Below, in pieces: positions 1 to 27,165 of a stretch of DNA of 35,266 bases. The position numbers and the translations under genes are program-made. This DNA is from Promethearchaeota archaeon (GTDB lineage Archaea; Asgardarchaeota; Hermodarchaeia; Hermodarchaeales; Hermodarchaeaceae), in NCBI GenBank assembly GCA_048939245.1, contig JBHLPR010000023.1, forward strand, positions 1 to 35,266, in the 5' to 3' direction. Below the pieces are notes generated by a model. That model saw nothing but the letters and a program-made list of their open reading frames with translations. It ran no database searches and had not been told where the DNA came from. The stretch's first letter is position 1; each line of letters opens with the position of its first letter.

Positions 1-872
1 CCTCCTCCTGTTAGCACGATATCATTTGATAGTTCTCGCCGTATTGTAAAATCTGTTTGTTCGATGGAGTCAATTACCGCATCAATTAAACCTTTGTCCC
101 CGATTCCTATTAGCGAAGGGTCGAAAAGAACTTCAGGGGCTCTCCACGGTACTGTTCCCAAGGAGACGTTAATACCCTTACGTCGGTATTGCCATTCTCG
201 GGGAGTTTTTTTGTCTTTAGGATTAGGTCGCACTTGGCAGTAGTTCCGTTTGATGTATTCGATAGCTATAGGGTCAGTTGCAATTTTTGCATAATCTGAA
301 TACCGTGCTGAATTATTTGCAGTTTCTTCATATAACCGTCGTAGTGCAGCGGTGACGTAGAGACTTCCCGTGGCCGTATCTACAACATGTTCTCGAAGTA
401 AAAAGCCCTGATAAATCGGAGTGATCATTGAAAGCGTATGACCGATATCGACAACCATTCCGGTATGTTTTCCTAGAAAAAGGAGAGTGAGCACTTGCTG
501 ATAAGCTGCAAGGAGCTTTCGGCAGCCCAACTGATCTCGGAGTTCATCACATACATCATAAACACGATTTTGATTAACGGTTGAAAAAATAAGGAGCTGA
601 AGTTCGGTAGCAACTCGTTGAAAACCCCCGATAGCCATCTTATCAAAGACACCAAGAATTAGCGGTTTTAAGACCGAAGCATCAGGAAGATTTCCATTTT
701 CCATCGGAAAGAATTTTCCAATTCGAGTTGGATCCAAAGTGTTAAGGTAAGAATCTCCTGCCTTTTTTCCTTGGCTTTTCACATAAGCAGGGATTATTTT
801 AGGTCTTGTCTTGTCGGGGTAGCCATATTTGAGAAACCCGGTGCCTAAATCAATAATCAGGGGATTTTGCAT
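1..872 (-). CDS. Actin-related protein (eukaryotic actin/Arp family, Asgard-type), 3' end beyond the window edge
   Basis: Manual translation from ATG at 872 (GAGGAG SD just upstream) is open to base 1: MQNPLIIDLGTGFLKYG...FPMENG...YQQVLTLLFLGKHTGMVVDIGHTLSMITPIYQGF...IEYIKRNYCQV...SLGTVPWRAPEVLFDPSLIG...DSIEQTDFTIRRELSNDIVLTGG. These blocks are colinear with actin DNGSGMCKAG, YPIEHG, QAVLSLYASGRTTGIVxDSG..VPIYEGY, DIKEKLCYV, IGNERFRCPE.LFQPSFxG and IRKDLYANxVLSGG. Confidence 0.93.
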   Translation of the reverse strand, partial: MQNPLIIDLGTGFLKYGYPDKTRPKIIPAYVKSQGKKAGDSYLNTLDPTRIGKFFPMENGNLPDASVLKPLILGVFDKMAIGGFQRVATELQLLIFSTVNQNRVYDVCDELRDQLGCRKLLAAYQQVLTLLFLGKHTGMVVDIGHTLSMITPIYQGFLLREHVVDTATGSLYVTAALRRLYEETANNSARYSDYAKIATDPIAIEYIKRNYCQVRPNPKDKKTPREWQYRRKGINVSLGTVPWRAPEVLFDPSLIGIGDKGLIDAVIDSIEQTDFTIRRELSNDIVLTGG

Positions 873-20664: not shown

Positions 20665-23031
20665 CTATTCAGAGTGAATGATACGCCCATTTGCCATGCG
20701 ATATTGATGTTCAGAAGCGGACAGTACAGCATTCTGATGGCTAACAACGATTATTTGTTGGAACGTTCGTGATAATTCGTCTTGTAGCAACCGAATAATG
20801 TTATCACGCCGTTGAATATCTGACCCTCCAAACGGTTCATCCAGCAAAAGAAACTGAGGCGCAGTACCTCGACCTTGGGGGAGGAGTGCAATCGCAAAGC
20901 CGAGACGTAACGCAAGGAGAAACTGATCTTCGGTTCCACCACTATACAAGTCTGCTTGGACATATTCGCCAGCCTCCGAAGAATATACTTTCAGGCTATA
21001 GTCTTCACTCAGCTTCGGAAACCGGTACTTACCATCCGTAATTGTGGCCAAAAGGCGCTCCATAACATTTACAACACGAGGGCGGACCTGTTCACGTCCC
21101 CGCTCTGCGACTTCACGAAGAAGGTCGATGATTAACTGACCGGTTTTGATATTCTCATTCAATGTGGCGATTTCACGTTCTTTTGCTGAATATTCTTCAA
21201 CCACACTTTCATTTTCTTTCAAAAGGGAAGCTAATTCCTCTAATCGCTCAGTTGTCGTTGTTCGATTTGCTTGTAAGCGAACCTTCTTTTCGCGCTTTTC
21301 CCTCACTTGTTGCTCAAGTTCCTCATATAACTCAGCTGAATATTTTCCCAGCGCCTCTGAAAGAGTAGGAAAGGTTAAGGTTGATAGTTTTTCGTTCAAT
21401 TCTGTAATTTCAGATTCAGTTTGTGCTAAATCCTCTTCTGATTCTGCCATTTCAGCTAGCTGTTCTTCTATCGACTCTAATTGCTCTATTAGTGAATTTG
21501 CGCCAGCCTTGAGCTCCATTAATTTCCGATCCACTTCCCTCACAGCGACTTGCAAAGCTTCGCTATCAGATGCACCCGGCATTTCAATGCCTTCGAGCAT
21601 AGAGGAAGAAACTTGATTTAACTGCGAATGGAGTTGTTGAGAAACACCGTCTATCTCTTCAGATAGGATAGATTTTCGTTGTATTTGATCTTGTAGTTGG
21701 CTTTGTTGTTCTTCTCTAACCCGATATTGGGCAACTTGTTCACCTAGCGATTCTTCACGTGTCATAAGTTGATCTAGTTCAGGAAGTGCTTTACTGTAAA
21801 TGAAATAGATCCTGGCCAGATAGAGTAAGAAGGGAATCGCGGCCACAACGAGAATTATCCCGAAAAGAGGATTAAAGAAAAGGATACTTAGTCCTGCGGC
21901 TAATAATCCAATGGAGGGAATGTAAAGCATCGGAGAGAAAATCTGTTTCTGACTAGCTTCGACCTTTTGGCGTTGAGCCTTAACATATTCAAATTCAGCA
22001 AGAATATCCTCCATTGGTTCTAATTCGTCCAGTTGCGCTTCCAGTCTGGTGATGTGTTCATCCACCATCTGTTGTTCATCAATTTTGGTTCGTAGTTGAT
22101 CTGAAGTGGTTCGTAAATTTTGGACCTTTTCAATCTCAATTGGTAAATATTCAAGTTGTTTTTGTTGCTTTTTAAGCCGTTTTTGTTGGGATTGGAGTTT
22201 GGAAGTACTTGCCAATTGTTTGGTTAGTCGATCCTTTGTTTCGATTTGGTGCTGTATTTCTCGTTGGAGTTCTTCTTGTCTATCTTGGATTTCCTTATAG
22301 GCCTTGACGGCCGTATAGTTTTTCTCAGTTTGAGCAAGAGATTGACTCACTTGTTTAAGTTGCTCTTCAAGCTGAGTAAGCACTTGTTGCTTGGCTTTGT
22401 GCTCCTCCGCATGTTTCAGAAAGTCTTCTTTACGATGTTTGAGCTGTTCTAGCGTTTTTTGTTCGGGTTCTATGGTCTTCTTTAATGGGCGGAGGTCTGA
22501 AAGAAGTTTATCATCAGCCCGTGTAAAGCACTCGCGTCCCATCATGGCATTGATAACATGCCGTCGTTCCATCTTTGGCATCTGGGCTAATCGATCTAGA
22601 TCTTTCTGAAGGACAATATTGCTTGCGAGCAGGTCGCTGAGTGCAATTCCATTCAGTAGACTACTGATTTCTTTGTCGACGTTTGTGACACCGGTAGCAA
22701 TTCGGGTGGATTGCCCCGATGCTCCAAGTTTATGTAATGACGCTTGGGTGGGGCGTTTCCGATTTATTCGTCGAGTGATTCGATAGTTGGTTCCATCAAT
22801 TTCAAAGTGGAGCTGTACTAGTGATTCATTGGCGTCATAATTGATGAGTCGGTCTTTTTGTCCCAGTGGAGCCTTGTGTGTACGCCCAAAGAACGCAAAG
22901 AGAATTGCTTCAAATATGCTGGATTTCCCGGATTCGTTGGGTCCACTGACTGCGAGAATGCCTTGGGGAAAGGTGATGTCCACATCAAGATGTTTGAAAT
23001 CCCGAGTCATTATTTGGCGAAGAACCACCAT
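20665..23031 (-). CDS. rad50: Rad50/SbcC-type SMC-like ATPase, hook-less, with predicted transmembrane hairpin at the coiled-coil apex
   Basis: Walker A GPNESGKS, Q-loop IVLQ, long heptad coiled coils, signature YSGG, Walker B LLLDEP, H-switch VVSH; directly downstream of mre11. ATG 23031 with GGAGG SD (ORF track TTG 23040). Confidence 0.9.
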   Translation of the reverse strand: MVVLRQIMTRDFKHLDVDITFPQGILAVSGPNESGKSSIFEAILFAFFGRTHKAPLGQKDRLINYDANESLVQLHFEIDGTNYRITRRINRKRPTQASLHKLGASGQSTRIATGVTNVDKEISSLLNGIALSDLLASNIVLQKDLDRLAQMPKMERRHVINAMMGRECFTRADDKLLSDLRPLKKTIEPEQKTLEQLKHRKEDFLKHAEEHKAKQQVLTQLEEQLKQVSQSLAQTEKNYTAVKAYKEIQDRQEELQREIQHQIETKDRLTKQLASTSKLQSQQKRLKKQQKQLEYLPIEIEKVQNLRTTSDQLRTKIDEQQMVDEHITRLEAQLDELEPMEDILAEFEYVKAQRQKVEASQKQIFSPMLYIPSIGLLAAGLSILFFNPLFGIILVVAAIPFLLYLARIYFIYSKALPELDQLMTREESLGEQVAQYRVREEQQSQLQDQIQRKSILSEEIDGVSQQLHSQLNQVSSSMLEGIEMPGASDSEALQVAVREVDRKLMELKAGANSLIEQLESIEEQLAEMAESEEDLAQTESEITELNEKLSTLTFPTLSEALGKYSAELYEELEQQVREKREKKVRLQANRTTTTERLEELASLLKENESVVEEYSAKEREIATLNENIKTGQLIIDLLREVAERGREQVRPRVVNVMERLLATITDGKYRFPKLSEDYSLKVYSSEAGEYVQADLYSGGTEDQFLLALRLGFAIALLPQGRGTAPQFLLLDEPFGGSDIQRRDNIIRLLQDELSRTFQQIIVVSHQNAVLSASEHQYRMANGRIIHSE

Positions 23032-23033
23032 CC

Positions 23034-24197
23034 TTACCAACCTCCGGATTCTTCAAGGAGTGCAAGTCCTTGCTCTAAGGCATTTTGAAGAAGTTTCTTC
23101 ATTTCAGGGTCTTTTTCCCGTTTAATCCGTTCCAGCACGTATTCGCGGTATTCGGTCGTCGGTGATTTCAAATCAGTATCAGTAGCGAGAAATTCAGGAT
23201 CTGGACTGATATATTCGAGCTCATCAATGATTTCTGTCGAAAAACATTTCGCGAATCCGTGACGCACGACTTCAGCCCGTCGATATTGTTCTGCGGATTT
23301 TATGGTCATAACGCCCTTCAATCGGAACCGCAGGATGAGTTGGGGGTTACGAAGACGGGTGATTTCCTTGATGAGCAGCTGATTGATGTTTGCATCCTTA
23401 GGTATTGTAACAGCAATAGTTTTCATAGCCCGGGTCTCTATGGGAATATGTTTGAGGATTTGAACGCCATCCGTGTCAACCTCTAACCAGACAAACCCTT
23501 TCTTTTGCCCCTCTTCAGTGAAGGTAACATGTTCAGTACTTCCTGGGGTACAGATGGTAGTGTTACCTGCCCTTTGTTTTTGGAATTCATGGTTATGACC
23601 TGCTGCAAGATAGGTAAGATTTTTCGGAACGGATTTGAGCAAAATATCCGGCTCATGGGGAAAGGTTCCCCGTAGCCCTTCCACATTATAGTGGGCGAGA
23701 AGTAGATTCACATCACCTTTCCCGGGGATTGATAATTGGTGAAGAGGATCTTCGGAGGGGAGAAGTGTGGGATTGAATGAAATTCCAGAGATTTCGATTT
23801 CCATGTTTTTAATAGCAAGAGATTGAGTTTGGATGCGTTCCCAATCCTGGAAGAAATTGACGAATCCGGCTCGTGCATATTCAAGTAAGGGAGCCACTCC
23901 GTGTCGACGTGCCCGAGGAACATCATGATTACCGCTTATGATATAGATTGGGATCTGTTTTTCATAGAGTTTGCGAAAAGCGTCCATCACATGTGCTCGG
24001 ACGGGGTTGCGGGGATTGAGTCCATCAAATAAATCGCCTGAATGGAGGAAAAGATCAGGTTTCTTTTCGAGGGCGTATTCAATCACTGTGTCAAAGGATT
24101 TGAGAAAATCTTTCTTGCGTTCATAGCGTCGTGCCTGGAATTTCACAGCGGGAATATCTAGGTGGGTGTCTGATGTGTGCAGAATCGTGATTGGCAC
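23034..24197 (-). CDS. mre11: Mre11/SbcD DNA repair nuclease
   Basis: Phosphoesterase motifs SDTHL, SGDLFD, SGNHD, LLAH, AGHNH, then PGSTE..EEGQKKGF and a capping domain. Confidence 0.94.
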   Translation of the reverse strand: MPITILHTSDTHLDIPAVKFQARRYERKKDFLKSFDTVIEYALEKKPDLFLHSGDLFDGLNPRNPVRAHVMDAFRKLYEKQIPIYIISGNHDVPRARRHGVAPLLEYARAGFVNFFQDWERIQTQSLAIKNMEIEISGISFNPTLLPSEDPLHQLSIPGKGDVNLLLAHYNVEGLRGTFPHEPDILLKSVPKNLTYLAAGHNHEFQKQRAGNTTICTPGSTEHVTFTEEGQKKGFVWLEVDTDGVQILKHIPIETRAMKTIAVTIPKDANINQLLIKEITRLRNPQLILRFRLKGVMTIKSAEQYRRAEVVRHGFAKCFSTEIIDELEYISPDPEFLATDTDLKSPTTEYREYVLERIKREKDPEMKKLLQNALEQGLALLEESGGW

Positions 24198-24203
24198 CGG
24201 TAA

Positions 24204-25835
24204 TCAAACCTCGGAGAAGGATCCTTTGAGTTTTGTTTCTTCTTTGCGGTCTTTCTTAAGCTTTTGATCTATTCCAACTGCTTTTCGTGCTTGTTTGAGT
24301 TTTGCCACCACGTCAATGTCAGCTCCGCCTTCTTTTGTGAGGCGTGAACGGACTTTGATCATCACAGGTGTTCGTGTGATATCGCCTACTACAACAGCTT
24401 CTCCAACGTTGAGACCAGGAAGGTCATTTATGAGGTCTTCACTTAGTCGTTCTGAGGATTGGGCAATGGCGTTCTGATCTCGGGGATTTGTAATTTTGAG
24501 GACAATTTGACTGTTGCACTGGCTAAGGCTATCAGGATGGATGCGCCCAGGTCGTTGGCTGATGAGGAGTAAGAAGACACCAAATTTTCGTCCTTCTTGG
24601 GCGATTCTTCGGATTATAGAGGCGGAATAGGTGAAGACTTCGGGTGGGACAAAATTATGGGCTTCTTCTACTACAACGAATACTGGATAGGCAAATTCAT
24701 CGGTTACGACCGCTTCGAAAACATCTCGAAGCAGCCGGCTGACGATATAGTCGGTGCTTCGGTTGCCGAGTCCTGAGAGGTCCATTACTGCAGCATGGTA
24801 GGGCCTTATGATTTTTGTCACAGGTACCCCACTTCTCGAGAACACGCGAAGGCGCCTTAGGCGATTGACATATTTGACTGCGTTTCGTGCACCAGCACGA
24901 GTATCTTTGCTTATCTGTTCATCTTCGGCAACTGTATTCAATTCCTTAACGATATCTTCCATGAGATAAACGATGTTCCGTTCTTTCAAACGATTCAATG
25001 CCGCTTCTAGTCCGGCCCGAATGATTGTAAAACTCTCCCCGATTCCACAAATGCCACAAAGTTCATCAAAATCTAAATCAGCTAATCGAACTGTATATTC
25101 TTCAACTTGGCCAATATCCTTTTTACTATAACGACCGGTGCTTTCAGGATTTTGAAAGACAGTAACATGTTCTGAGAAAGTATGGCTAGTCCCTTTTTCG
25201 GTTTGACTCAGAAATACATAGTCAGCGTGAGGGTCGATGACAATGACTGTGGCACCCCGTTTCATTAACTCTTCGATGAGCACTCCTGTAAGATAGCTTT
25301 TACCTGCCCCTGTTTGAGCTAGAATCGCTACATGCCGTCGGAATCCATTGATTCGGATGTTGACCGGGATTTGTGGTCGAGAGATAAGATTACCGATGTA
25401 AAGACTTGCATCATTGGGGTAGGCGTAAAATTGTGCGAGTAGATGATTTGGTGCGATGTATATGGGGTTTCCAGGCGTCACTGCGCGGCGGGGAAGTAGT
25501 ATACGTGGAGGATGCCCTTTCTTCGTTGGAGTAAGGTATCCTAGAACTCGTGCAACACCCCAAGTTTTTACATCATCGATGTGGGCTTCTTTGATTCGCG
25601 TGATTGCATCATAATCGAGATCGCGACGCAAAGCGAGGCTTTGAGAGGTGATGCGTTCAACCTGTGCAAGGACTTTAACGGGTTTGAGAACGCCATCGAC
25701 GAGTTCTTCGGATTGAACGGTAAGATATTCAAATTTGGGGGGATAGCGTTTCCGTTCACTCGCAAAGTAAAATTCGGTGGCTTTGGCTTCTTCGACGATG
25801 AAGCCTACGGGTTGATCTTCTTGGGTATTAGGCAC
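24204..25835 (-). CDS. herA: HerA DNA helicase/translocase
   Basis: N-terminal HAS barrel, RHVAILAQTGAGKS, IDPHADY, VVVEEAHNF, EGRKFG, SQRP, LPGLNVGEA; GTG 25835 with GGAGG SD overlaps the nurA stop (ORF track 25853). Confidence 0.94.
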   Translation of the reverse strand: MPNTQEDQPVGFIVEEAKATEFYFASERKRYPPKFEYLTVQSEELVDGVLKPVKVLAQVERITSQSLALRRDLDYDAITRIKEAHIDDVKTWGVARVLGYLTPTKKGHPPRILLPRRAVTPGNPIYIAPNHLLAQFYAYPNDASLYIGNLISRPQIPVNIRINGFRRHVAILAQTGAGKSYLTGVLIEELMKRGATVIVIDPHADYVFLSQTEKGTSHTFSEHVTVFQNPESTGRYSKKDIGQVEEYTVRLADLDFDELCGICGIGESFTIIRAGLEAALNRLKERNIVYLMEDIVKELNTVAEDEQISKDTRAGARNAVKYVNRLRRLRVFSRSGVPVTKIIRPYHAAVMDLSGLGNRSTDYIVSRLLRDVFEAVVTDEFAYPVFVVVEEAHNFVPPEVFTYSASIIRRIAQEGRKFGVFLLLISQRPGRIHPDSLSQCNSQIVLKITNPRDQNAIAQSSERLSEDLINDLPGLNVGEAVVVGDITRTPVMIKVRSRLTKEGGADIDVVAKLKQARKAVGIDQKLKKDRKEETKLKGSFSEV

Positions 25836-27165
25836 GACGGACCCTCCTTTCACGGCGTTTGGGTATTAATGGGATTTTCAATTCTTTTTCGATTAATGGT
25901 TCATATAATGTTCTCACATCCCTCGTGGGCAATCGGGCTTCTTGGTCAGCGTTCACCAGATAAGCATTATACAATTCTAATCCACCATATTCACCACGTA
26001 ATATCCTCAAAATCTCGATTACTCGAGCCGGGGGAGGGTCAAGCAAGCGCGAGGAAGATATTTGAGATATTCGTGTTGGGAGCCCCGCATTAAATGCAGG
26101 TAAATCGATACGCAGAGGGGTGTCATTGTAAGCGAATTTCGTACAGAATGTCACGAACGTGGGAATTTGGAAGACATTTTGCATAACCGGAACGGCCCAT
26201 TTTTCAAATTCGTCTTCATGATCATAGTCATTATACGCGTTCACAAAGCGTCGTCTTACGTATGCCGCGGGGTCTTTGGATTCGTATTTGAAGAGCGGAA
26301 CATCGGGGTACGGCTCAATTGGTGTAGTATATCCCGCAGTTTCTGTCCAGGCTTGAATAAGGGAAAAATCAGGGCGAGGTCGGCGAAGCTCATAAAGGAG
26401 GTCCCAGATTAACTCAGATTGCTTATTGCTGAGGGGGAGTGCTTTAAGGATGGATCTTGTAGAAATGGACTGCTTCTTCTCAATATTAAATAATTGAGCG
26501 AGTTGGTCTAACTCGTCTGGCTTGAGAGCGGGAGTAAGTTCCTGTAATATTTTATTCTTTACCGATTCCAATAAAATGCGGGTGAGATGCCGAGCAACAG
26601 AATCCTTGCTGATTCCAAGAATCAAAATTTTACGTTTCCGACATTCCTCGAGGAGCCGCATGAAGGTTTGCATATAGCGTAGATAGAGGTCTCTTTCCCC
26701 GGGGTAATTGAATGCGATTGGTACATGGGTTATACGACCATACAAGGAACCGTCCAATAGAATCAAATCTACATCCGAAGCTTCTTGTACTGCTTCCAGC
26801 GCTACTTGGTGTTCTATATGTTCGGATCGGATGCTCGCGAGGTCGATGAGTTGTTCTCGCGGAGAAGCAATCATGTGAGCATTTGAGGAGACTTTACGGT
26901 ATGTTGATCCCCACGAAGTGATGGCACTTGCTCGGCAAATATACATAAAGGAACCTGAGGCATACTCCCGAGTTGAACGACCACTGTCTACCGCAATCAC
27001 TTGTAGTTCGGGTTTTTTCTCAGAAGGAAGCTCGCGCCATTCTCTTTGAAAAGCCGTTTTTAAGAACCCATCGAGATCTGTAGATTCTTCACCGGTGAGT
27101 CGACGACGAAACGCGTCGCGTTTTTCTTGTAACTCGGAGAGGAATAGATCGAGAAAATGTGGCAT
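25828..27165 (-). CDS. nurA: NurA DNA double-strand-break repair nuclease
   Basis: IAVDSG, EHIEH, LILLDGSL, GISKDS, PLRID, C-terminal YNAYLVNADQEAR; adjacent to herA. Confidence 0.9.
   Translation of the reverse strand: MPHFLDLFLSELQEKRDAFRRRLTGEESTDLDGFLKTAFQREWRELPSEKKPELQVIAVDSGRSTREYASGSFMYICRASAITSWGSTYRKVSSNAHMIASPREQLIDLASIRSEHIEHQVALEAVQEASDVDLILLDGSLYGRITHVPIAFNYPGERDLYLRYMQTFMRLLEECRKRKILILGISKDSVARHLTRILLESVKNKILQELTPALKPDELDQLAQLFNIEKKQSISTRSILKALPLSNKQSELIWDLLYELRRPRPDFSLIQAWTETAGYTTPIEPYPDVPLFKYESKDPAAYVRRRFVNAYNDYDHEDEFEKWAVPVMQNVFQIPTFVTFCTKFAYNDTPLRIDLPAFNAGLPTRISQISSSRLLDPPPARVIEILRILRGEYGGLELYNAYLVNADQEARLPTRDVRTLYEPLIEKELKIPLIPKRRERRVRRA

Follow-up and report, generated by a model that had tools for sequence, protein, structure and literature searches.

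In the Rad50/SbcC family, dimers join their apices through a zinc hook. To our knowledge, this apex is the dimerisation point in all known relatives, and the hook is regarded as universal in Mre11-Rad50 complexes and as required for tethering and function. A Rad50-like ABC ATPase encoded in the genome of a Promethearchaeota archaeon (Hermodarchaeaceae) carries a hydrophobic hairpin at this place, raising the question of what such an apex does and where the repair complex built on it would act. The window analyzed here is a stretch of 35,266 nucleotides of contig JBHLPR010000023.1 (assembly GCA_048939245.1).

As shown in Table 1, the gene for the hairpin ATPase is the last of a nurA-herA-mre11-rad50 operon on the minus strand, with nurA as the first gene, as judged from Pfam matches and the ORF map, and the genes are joined by overlaps or by gaps of 2-6 nt. 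The ORF of the ATPase as listed spans positions 20665-23040 and encodes 791 aa from a TTG at 23040, but translation almost certainly begins at the ATG at 23031 instead, as this codon lies 2 nt past the mre11 stop and has a GGAGGT ahead. The resulting 788 aa are the length of an identical database protein (P0005). The frame is open throughout, which rules out a second start or a frameshift. herA probably begins at the GTG at 25835, which overlaps the nurA stop. In the Mre11 translation the phosphoesterase motifs DTH, GDLFD, GNHD and GHNH are readable, and its top NCBIfam match, Mre11_Sulfo, scores 101 bits, under the cut-off. HerA also stays under the cut-off with the NCBIfam helicase_HerA model (228 against 970 bits), and shows no transmembrane segment (Kyte-Doolittle maximum of 1.25).

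Table 1. Features of the operon and of its hairpin ATPase; positions are those of the window, and residues of the ATPase follow the 788-aa numbering.
Feature	Position	Strand	Details
nurA	25828..27165	-	445 aa; Pfam NurA PF09376, E 2.8e-16
herA	24204..25853	-	549 aa as listed; Pfam DUF87/HerA, E 1.1e-37
mre11	23034..24197	-	387 aa; Pfam Metallophos, E 2.2e-17
Rad50-like ABC ATPase	20665..23031	-	788 aa from ATG; Pfam AAA_23 and SMC_N
Walker A, G30-S37 GPNESGKS	22921..22944	-	G30, N32, E33, G35, K36 invariant in 72-sequence alignment
Outgoing coiled-coil arm, residues 167-363	21943..22533	-	AF2/DSSP helices 167-291, 296-336, 343-364; 38% charged
Hydrophobic helix 1, residues 364-386, IFSPMLYIPSIGLLAAGLSILFF	21874..21942	-	AF2 helix 367-384
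Tight turn N387-P388	21868..21873	-	AF2 non-helical residues 385-387
Hydrophobic helix 2, residues 389-412, LFGIILVVAAIPFLLYLARIYFIY	21796..21867	-	AF2 helix from 388, unbroken into return arm to 472
Returning coiled-coil arm, residues 413-647	21091..21795	-	AF2/DSSP helices 388-472, 490-549, 566-606, 610-647
Signature motif S697 G698, Walker B D731 E732, D-loop D738, H-loop H765	20737..20943	-	Invariant columns, 72-sequence alignment

The ATPase site of the protein appears intact, since its motifs, including the Q-loop residue Q142, are invariant in the 72-sequence alignment, and Pfam SbcC_Walker_B also matches. By sequence, the nearest solved structures are archaeal and Thermotoga Rad50 (5f3w/3aux, E 5e-23), and an AlphaFold2 (AF2) model with a mean pLDDT of 85.8 retrieved Rad50 chains (7zr1, 5dny, 3av0 and 3qf7) as top Foldseek matches. 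When compared with canonical archaeal Rad50 (Methanocaldococcus jannaschii, Pyrococcus furiosus and Sulfolobus; NF003034, NF041034), the protein shares the operon slot and partners, the ABC ATPase motifs, the antiparallel intramolecular coiled coil and the head fold, but differs in the hydrophobic hairpin found in place of the zinc hook and in falling into a clade that excludes the 10 sampled proteins of the hook type. Its top NCBIfam match, PRK03918, reaches 144 bits against a cut-off of 700, so that the name Rad50 given to it by a first, sequence-only reading denotes a similarity in fold and in operon position, and not membership under the NCBI Rad50 cut-off.

The same reading had described a protein with a single cysteine, and two uncharged stretches joined by an Asn-Pro turn at the point where the coiled coil folds back, and all of this was found to be right. 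The sole cysteine of the 791-aa ORF is C171, within GRECF, and no CxxC is present. At residues 367-415 of that ORF (364-412 in the 788-aa numbering; positions 21942-21796) the sequence is as quoted there, with two hydrophobic stretches of around 23 residues each linked by F-N-P, and basic residues on its flanks (R357, K359 and K365 on one side, R410 and K417 on the other, 791-aa numbering). Residues 366-409 in the same numbering form a run of 44 without any D, E, K or R at the midpoint of the protein. The coiled coil is around 37% charged, and a run like this would occur by chance with a probability of around 0.63^44, or 1e-9, per position. The best 19-residue Kyte-Doolittle (KD) mean is 2.49, against 0.7-1.25 in the three neighbouring proteins.

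Both helices of the hairpin are hydrophobic on every face, that is, they are not amphipathic, with a mean KD of 1.88, a hydrophobic moment of 0.18 and 3 polar residues out of 23 in helix 1, and values of 2.22, 0.17 and 1 out of 24 in helix 2. Helix 1 contains two prolines, two glycines and three serines, which makes it a weaker transmembrane candidate than helix 2. AF2 draws a helix-turn-helix at the apex of an antiparallel coiled coil, although, as modelling proceeds without a membrane, a helical hairpin would be drawn in either case. A prediction with two copies of the apex (residues 300-480) gave scores of 0.17 and 0.24, below the mark of 0.42, and speaks neither for nor against pairing.

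Far from being the peculiarity of a single gene, the trait is common to a large clade that extends over several archaeal and bacterial phyla. Among 1.84 billion representatives, a central hydrophobic segment was detected in 142 of the 150 best matches, and a central CxxC in none of these 150. Members of the hairpin type were found in Asgard archaea, Bathyarchaeia, Nitrososphaeria, Thermofilaceae, Chloroflexota and Dictyoglomota. In most of the related loci with a contig long enough, and in every archaeal one, the gene directly upstream encodes a Mre11 homologue. All orthologues carry the hairpin, which rules out an assembly artefact or an insertion as its origin. Over 156 relatives the uncharged core measures 34-60 aa, with a median of 43, and is centred at 0.488 of the protein length. 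The first charged residue flanking it is K or R in 153 of the 156 on the N side and in 151 on the C side, and the flanks, depleted in D and E, contain 3.6 and 3.1 K+R per 12 aa, where the arms have 2.05. In a head-domain tree the 60 hairpin rows form one clade (SH-aLRT 95) that includes the JGI "YhaN" proteins P0063, P0065 and P0066 and lies apart from the hook rows, in a quick search with a long-branch outgroup, rows picked by similarity to the query and a hook type represented by 10 rows. As a hallmark, the hairpin is common to a large clade of Rad50-like ATPases that has hardly been studied.

Of the described proteins, the nearest relative is B. subtilis SbcE/YhaN (partner SbcF/YhaO; COG4717, PF13514 AAA_27). 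Both have a Rad50/SbcC-like head, two long heptad-repeat arms without CxxC, a hydrophobic centre bearing a conserved proline and an adjacent gene for a Mre11-like nuclease. The Asgard protein differs in being archaeal, in its length of around 790 aa where B. subtilis SbcE has around 960, in its location within a nurA-herA-mre11-rad50 operon, and in a sequence closer to archaeal Rad50 models than to SbcC. Its PF13514 match scores 20.6 bits, just below the gathering cut-off of 22, and many close Asgard homologues carry a precomputed match to this family. The putative kinship with B. subtilis SbcE itself is indirect, being judged through JGI-labelled proteins, and a homologue search from one of them (P0065) retrieved only close relatives from Dormibacteraeota and Chloroflexota. 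SbcE was described as having no CxxC and two heptad-repeat arms, between which lies a central domain that is hydrophobic and contains a conserved proline (Krishnamurthy et al. 2009, PMC2811018). In that work the protein accumulated at the DNA-uptake machinery of the cell pole, and SbcE-YFP foci, described on nucleoids, were mobile and crossed the cell within a minute, a behaviour that its authors did not interpret as membrane localisation; the central domain is nowhere termed transmembrane (PMC2811018). More remote likenesses come from PADLOC, where Lamassu LmuB, PbeC and mad3 share the ABC/SMC-type head at 56-91 bits, lower than the scores against Rad50 models. A reading of the locus as a defence system was rejected, as PADLOC matched only the generic SMC head and HerA, with no match for Mre11 or NurA and no defence-system gene set present.

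The distribution of hairpin and hook within Asgard archaea was also studied. The hairpin operon is present in all 19 sampled genomes of the own family, and a hook-type Rad50 was detected in one of them, that of a congener (G043) which carries both types and whose true hook-type Mre11-Rad50 pair includes a Rad50 scoring 309 bits on PRK03918. With this hook-type protein as the query, no hook-type Rad50 was found in the other 18; P0005 and the short PF04423 model (Rad50_zn_hook) are insensitive queries for this type, and with the latter nothing scored over the cut-off anywhere in the source genome, which is 88% complete. In two other Asgard genomes (G029 and G142) separate hairpin-type and hook-type operons coexist, showing that the two types are parallel modules and that archaea have two parallel versions of the nurA-herA-mre11-rad50 operon. 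HerA is 42-54% identical to HerA from hairpin-type operons of other phyla, whereas against HerA of hook-type operons the identity is only around 27-33%, over partial local matches; nurA orthologues with 28-86% identity hold the same slot in hairpin-type operons of other archaea.

What does the hairpin do? Our preferred reading, to which we give a probability of around 0.65, is that the protein is a hookless Rad50-like ABC ATPase of a membrane-hairpin clade, with its hairpin inserted in the cytoplasmic membrane in a tethering role; the hairpin is probably what fixes the repair complex to the cell membrane. The sequence-only reading had placed the apex in the membrane with arms and head in the cytoplasm; of this, the hydrophobic helical hairpin at the apex and the absence of a hook are now firm, and the membrane placement is favoured. 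Hydrophobicity, lack of amphipathicity, the K/R collar and the AF2 hairpin together favour such a topology, and the collar on both sides fits the positive-inside pattern expected if both arms are cytoplasmic. On the same side count the central domain of SbcE, insoluble when expressed alone, and the gathering of SbcE at the site of DNA uptake, whereas its mobile foci on nucleoids count against a membrane anchor (PMC2811018).

The zinc hook could also be replaced by protein alone, with the hairpins of two or more molecules forming a greasy helical bundle outside the membrane, which would agree with the general behaviour of the Rad50 apex as a dimerisation point. In close Asgard homologues, moreover, the hairpin is more conserved than the coils (entropy of 1.16 against 1.66-1.82), the turn Asn being kept in most, and fixed Pro, Gly, Asn and Tyr positions suggest specific helix-helix packing. 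The SbcE central domain expressed alone was completely insoluble (PMC2811018), as would fit any exposed hydrophobic surface. However, the outer faces of a soluble bundle would have to be polar, and these helices are apolar all round, in such a way that two or even four hairpins would still leave a large apolar surface in water; such a bundle also gives no role to a K/R collar present in 97-98% of the 156 members, and distant relatives keep hydrophobicity and length without a packing motif, the entropy of their hairpins (2.80) being about equal to that of the coils (2.95). We regard it as improbable. A monotopic wedge that re-enters the cytoplasmic leaflet without spanning it, of the reticulon type or as in lipid-droplet proteins, has little chance of being the right one: the turn of only 2-3 residues without an outside loop and the short, Pro/Gly-rich helix 1 of the model (18 residues) would suit it, and both ends would have to be cytoplasmic under either topology, but stretches of 23-24 residues each suffice to span the bilayer, and the median core of the family corresponds to two full spans plus a turn.

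A different possibility accepts the anchor as real and sees the main job of the module not in chromosomal break repair but in processing DNA that passes through the membrane or is in contact with it, be it imported, conjugative or viral. HerA, a member of the FtsK/HerA translocase group, matches the CedD and anti-phage HerA models as well in an NCBIfam profile search, and the coexistence of both operon types in G029 and G142 would be expected if their jobs differ. Against this, the hairpin operon is the sole Mre11-Rad50 set found in 18 of the 19 genomes of the family and therefore probably covers general repair too, the PADLOC matches are generic, and the ORF map, in which the neighbours are unannotated, shows no uptake or defence genes beside the operon. 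We consider a main job of this kind unlikely.

If the hairpin is a membrane anchor, as we prefer, the chain would leave the ATPase head along a coiled-coil arm of around 200 residues, enter the hairpin, with its short Asn-Pro turn directed outward and both basic flanks inside, and come back through the second arm to the head, which would bind Mre11, the nuclease whose gene lies immediately upstream. From the ~200 coiled-coil residues an arm is estimated to be roughly 25-30 nm long, and both the Mre11/Rad50 head and the operon's own HerA-NurA resection motor would then act on DNA within about that distance of the membrane. The task of joining apices, otherwise that of the zinc hook, would fall to this anchoring in a two-dimensional membrane, to which lateral contacts between hairpins may add.

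A complex held at the membrane would reach only those breaks in DNA within around 30 nm of it, a point that counts against the anchor and is awkward because the hairpin type seems to be the only Mre11-Rad50 of this family.

A literature search over a limited collection found no paper on the replacement of the hook by a hairpin or on two forms of the operon, the only related one being PMC2811018; neither the membrane nor the zinc hook comes up in a review of archaeal NurA from 2026 (PMC13748450). New here are the occurrence of the hairpin operon in every sampled genome of the family, with the hook type in one, and the separate parallel operons of two Asgard genomes. The value of this locus itself is that of one more, well-documented member of the clade, and its hairpin offers a testable reading for a feature of B. 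subtilis SbcE that has lacked an explanation since 2009, the "unique central domain".

A wider proposal, tentative and at present rather doubtful, is that the only Mre11-Rad50 and HerA-NurA machinery of this Hermod/Thor-like family would be an integral membrane complex in which DNA ends are recognized and resected at the membrane, with lateral association of hairpins replacing the bridging by hooks, and that hairpin and hook operons may represent two ancient and distinct modules, one membrane-bound and the other soluble. What is already clear is that a large clade carries a membrane-type hairpin in place of the supposedly universal zinc hook. If this hairpin is truly inserted in the membrane, the processing of double-strand breaks would be bound in space to the membrane, both in these archaea and in many bacteria. 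This would have consequences for how breaks are located, for the links between repair and DNA uptake or segregation, and for the question of what the hook itself adds.

The Rad50-like ATPase is encoded by the last gene of a tightly packed four-gene cluster, nurA-herA-mre11-rad50, in an archaeal MAG of 2.52 Mb that is 88% complete. An ATG at 23031, found 2 nt past the mre11 stop and with GGAGGT ahead, is also the start of the identical database protein P0005, supporting a product of 788 aa, so that the residue numbers of the sequence-only reading (791 aa) run three higher. The protein is 75% identical to a homologue in a 'Candidatus Hermodarchaeota' MAG, and further close matches carry the labels Promethearchaeota, Thorarchaeota and Odinarchaeota. 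Its ATPase motifs are complete and invariant across a 72-sequence alignment, the nearest solved proteins by sequence are the Rad50 of M. jannaschii, T. maritima and P. furiosus, and the best fold matches of its AF2 model (mean pLDDT 85.8) are Rad50 chains.

Genes of the cluster (window coordinates) and segments of the modelled Rad50-like ATPase (788 numbering)
Feature	Position	Strand	Source
nurA	25828-27165	minus	four-gene cluster
herA	24204-25853	minus	four-gene cluster
mre11	23034-24197	minus	four-gene cluster
Rad50-like ATPase (ORF as listed)	20665-23040	minus	four-gene cluster
Outgoing arm (helices)	167-364		AF2 model
Brief break at S-P, between outgoing arm and hairpin helix 1			AF2 model
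Hairpin helix 1	367-384		AF2 model
Turn of three residues, F-N-P	385-387		AF2 model
Hairpin helix 2, unbroken into return arm	388-472		AF2 model

The absence of the zinc hook, claimed from the sequence alone, was confirmed: C171, in GRECF, is the sole cysteine, and no CxxC is present. The uncharged apex was equally correct, as residues 366-409 hold no charged residue and nucleotides 21796-21942 correspond exactly to residues 367-415 (both in 791 numbering). Since 33-38% of the residues in the coiled-coil arms are charged, such a run is not attributable to chance. The best 19-residue Kyte-Doolittle mean was 2.49, against 0.7-1.25 in the three partner proteins. Both helices of the hydrophobic stretch are apolar on all faces, as shown by moments of 0.17-0.18 (hydrophobic moment) and few polar residues (3 of 23 and 1 of 24).

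Homologues had been proposed as a check, with a transmembrane apex set against CxxC, and the result favoured a hydrophobic, putatively transmembrane apex. When 1.84 billion representatives were searched exhaustively with HMMER, 7,613 matches were obtained, and among the best 150, which were inspected, 142 had a central hydrophobic segment and none a central CxxC; the others were four short fragments and four full-length proteins without the segment. The predicted hairpin is thus a hallmark common to a large, little-studied clade. Its archaeal members belong to Hermod-, Thor- and Promethearchaeota, Bathyarchaeia, Nitrososphaeria/Thaumarchaeota, Thermofilaceae and Brockarchaeota, and its bacterial ones to Dictyoglomota, Chloroflexota, Armatimonadota, Nitrospira and Rubrobacter. 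The order nurA-herA-mre11-rad50 is kept in Asgard, Thermofilaceae, Brockarchaeota and some Bathyarchaeia, and in soil Bathyarchaeota and Chloroflexota with a detected partner, mre11 is the only adjoining partner gene. In an ML tree built quickly from head domains, with rows picked by similarity to the query, a long outgroup branch and only 10 hook-type rows, 60 hairpin-type rows and 2 without a clear segment formed one clade (SH-aLRT 95) apart from the hook-type rows, and this clade holds JGI-labelled YhaN proteins.

Bacterial hairpin-type members have arms up to twice the archaeal length (P0214, 1,695 aa; a 1,705-aa ORF at locus L131; P0154 and P0162, 1,345-1,392 aa), and as the hairpin stays near the midpoint both arms must grow in step. 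In a Chloroflexota MAG (DATGKN010000147.1, L134:1381-6744), the stop-to-stop frame with a 1,392-aa hairpin-type protein reaches 1,788 aa and overlaps an Mre11-matching region (1397-2377), being either a fusion or a mere overlapping frame.

The flanks of the segment were analyzed in 156 relatives, taken from two homologue searches, whose uncharged core measures 30 aa or more. The core was 34-60 aa long (median 43) and centred at 0.488 of protein length, and the first charged residue beside it was Lys or Arg in 153 of 156 on the N side and 151 of 156 on the C side. Lys plus Arg reached 3.6 and 3.1 per 12-residue flank (2.05 in the arms), and Asp plus Glu 1.4 and 1.1 (2.4 in the arms). This pattern is positive-inside on both sides, as required by a putative hairpin with both ends cytoplasmic, and it serves no purpose in a soluble bundle. 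A hydrophobic bundle made of protein only, in place of membrane insertion, is therefore improbable, given this basic collar and the all-round hydrophobicity of both helices. A re-entrant wedge that does not span the membrane fits the same evidence as a spanning hairpin, but seems no likelier than the bundle. In distant relatives the hairpin (entropy 2.80; coils 2.95) keeps only hydrophobicity and length, as is typical of anchors. In close Asgard homologues its conservation exceeds that of the coils (1.16 versus 1.66-1.82), and Pro, Gly, Asn and Tyr positions are fixed, which leaves room for specific helix packing. Membrane insertion, as in the sequence-only reading, remains the best available explanation, and an unproven one.

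The distribution of both types was studied in 151 genomes of the phylum, 19 of them from the window's own Hermod/Thor-like family. A close orthologue was present in all 19, and a zinc hook above the Pfam cut-off appeared in 48 of the 151, mostly outside the family, where G043, a genome of the window's genus, was the only one in which a real hook-type Mre11-Rad50 pair turned up. These data support that the hairpin operon is the resident Mre11-Rad50 system of the family. The G043 pair (L147:1581-5644, on 16-kb contig C43, besides the hairpin operon) consists of a 425-aa Mre11 and a 942-aa Rad50 with CPLC at 507 (PRK03918, 309 bits), and may represent an accessory module, a horizontally acquired one or contamination of the bin. 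In the window's genome, G000, tblastn detected no further gene for Mre11, NurA or a Rad50-like protein; its other AAA_23 ORFs are one SMC, on C26, and one hinge-type SMC-like protein of 979 aa (C96:12255-15191, plus strand), with an AAA_23 head, a middle that looks globular and hinge-like, and no CxxC or hydrophobic segment. Two more HerA-like genes (C26:12971-14338, plus strand; C90:24469-25398, minus strand) are about 30% identical to the operon HerA.

Two genomes of other Asgard families, G029 and G142, each carry one nurA-herA-mre11-rad50 operon of the hairpin type and one or two herA-mre11-rad50 operons with a CPTC/CPKC hook. The window HerA is 42-54% identical to that of hairpin operons across phyla, whereas it gave only partial local matches (about 27-33% identity) with the hook-operon HerA of G029 and G142. 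This split and the coexistence suggest that the four genes travel as a unit and that the operon types are parallel modules. In other Asgard families (L043-L046, in G145, G139, G130 and G016), both halves of the Rad50-like head (residues about 3-258 and 612-777) are matched by ORFs of about 430-460 aa, which contain hardly any coiled coil and neither CxxC nor a hydrophobic segment, suggesting a Rad50-like family with short arms.

The closest described system is SbcE/SbcF (YhaN/YhaO) of B. subtilis. SbcE is an SbcC-like SMC protein without CxxC that has a nuclease as partner and takes part in DSB repair and in transformation. Its "unique central domain", with many hydrophobic residues and a conserved proline, is wholly insoluble if expressed alone, and a transmembrane hairpin was never put forward for it (PMC2811018, 2009). 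No publication proposing one in such proteins was found in the literature searched, and a 2026 NurA review covering Asgard homologues (PMC13748450) does not mention it. The window's protein, in contrast to canonical Rad50, lacks the defining zinc hook; it scored 144 bits against the NCBI Rad50 cut-off of 700, and 20.6 against 22 for PF13514. By architecture and tree it falls with the putative SbcE/YhaN-like hairpin clade, the B. subtilis founder being compared by description, and it is predicted to work like Rad50.

We propose, with a probability of about 0.65, that the hairpin would be inserted in the membrane, holding the Mre11-Rad50 head and HerA-NurA no farther from it than about one arm length, roughly 25-30 nm as inferred from about 200 residues of coiled coil. 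That the system serves chiefly to process incoming DNA at the membrane, and not for chromosomal repair, is suggested by the SbcE data and by the coexistence of both operon types, but we find it rather doubtful, as the hairpin operon is the only set in the family (bar G043) and PADLOC matches were merely generic. Beyond putting the positive-inside evidence into numbers, what is new here is that both operon types stand side by side in other Asgard genomes, and that in this Asgard lineage the hook type is replaced by the hairpin type at the family level.
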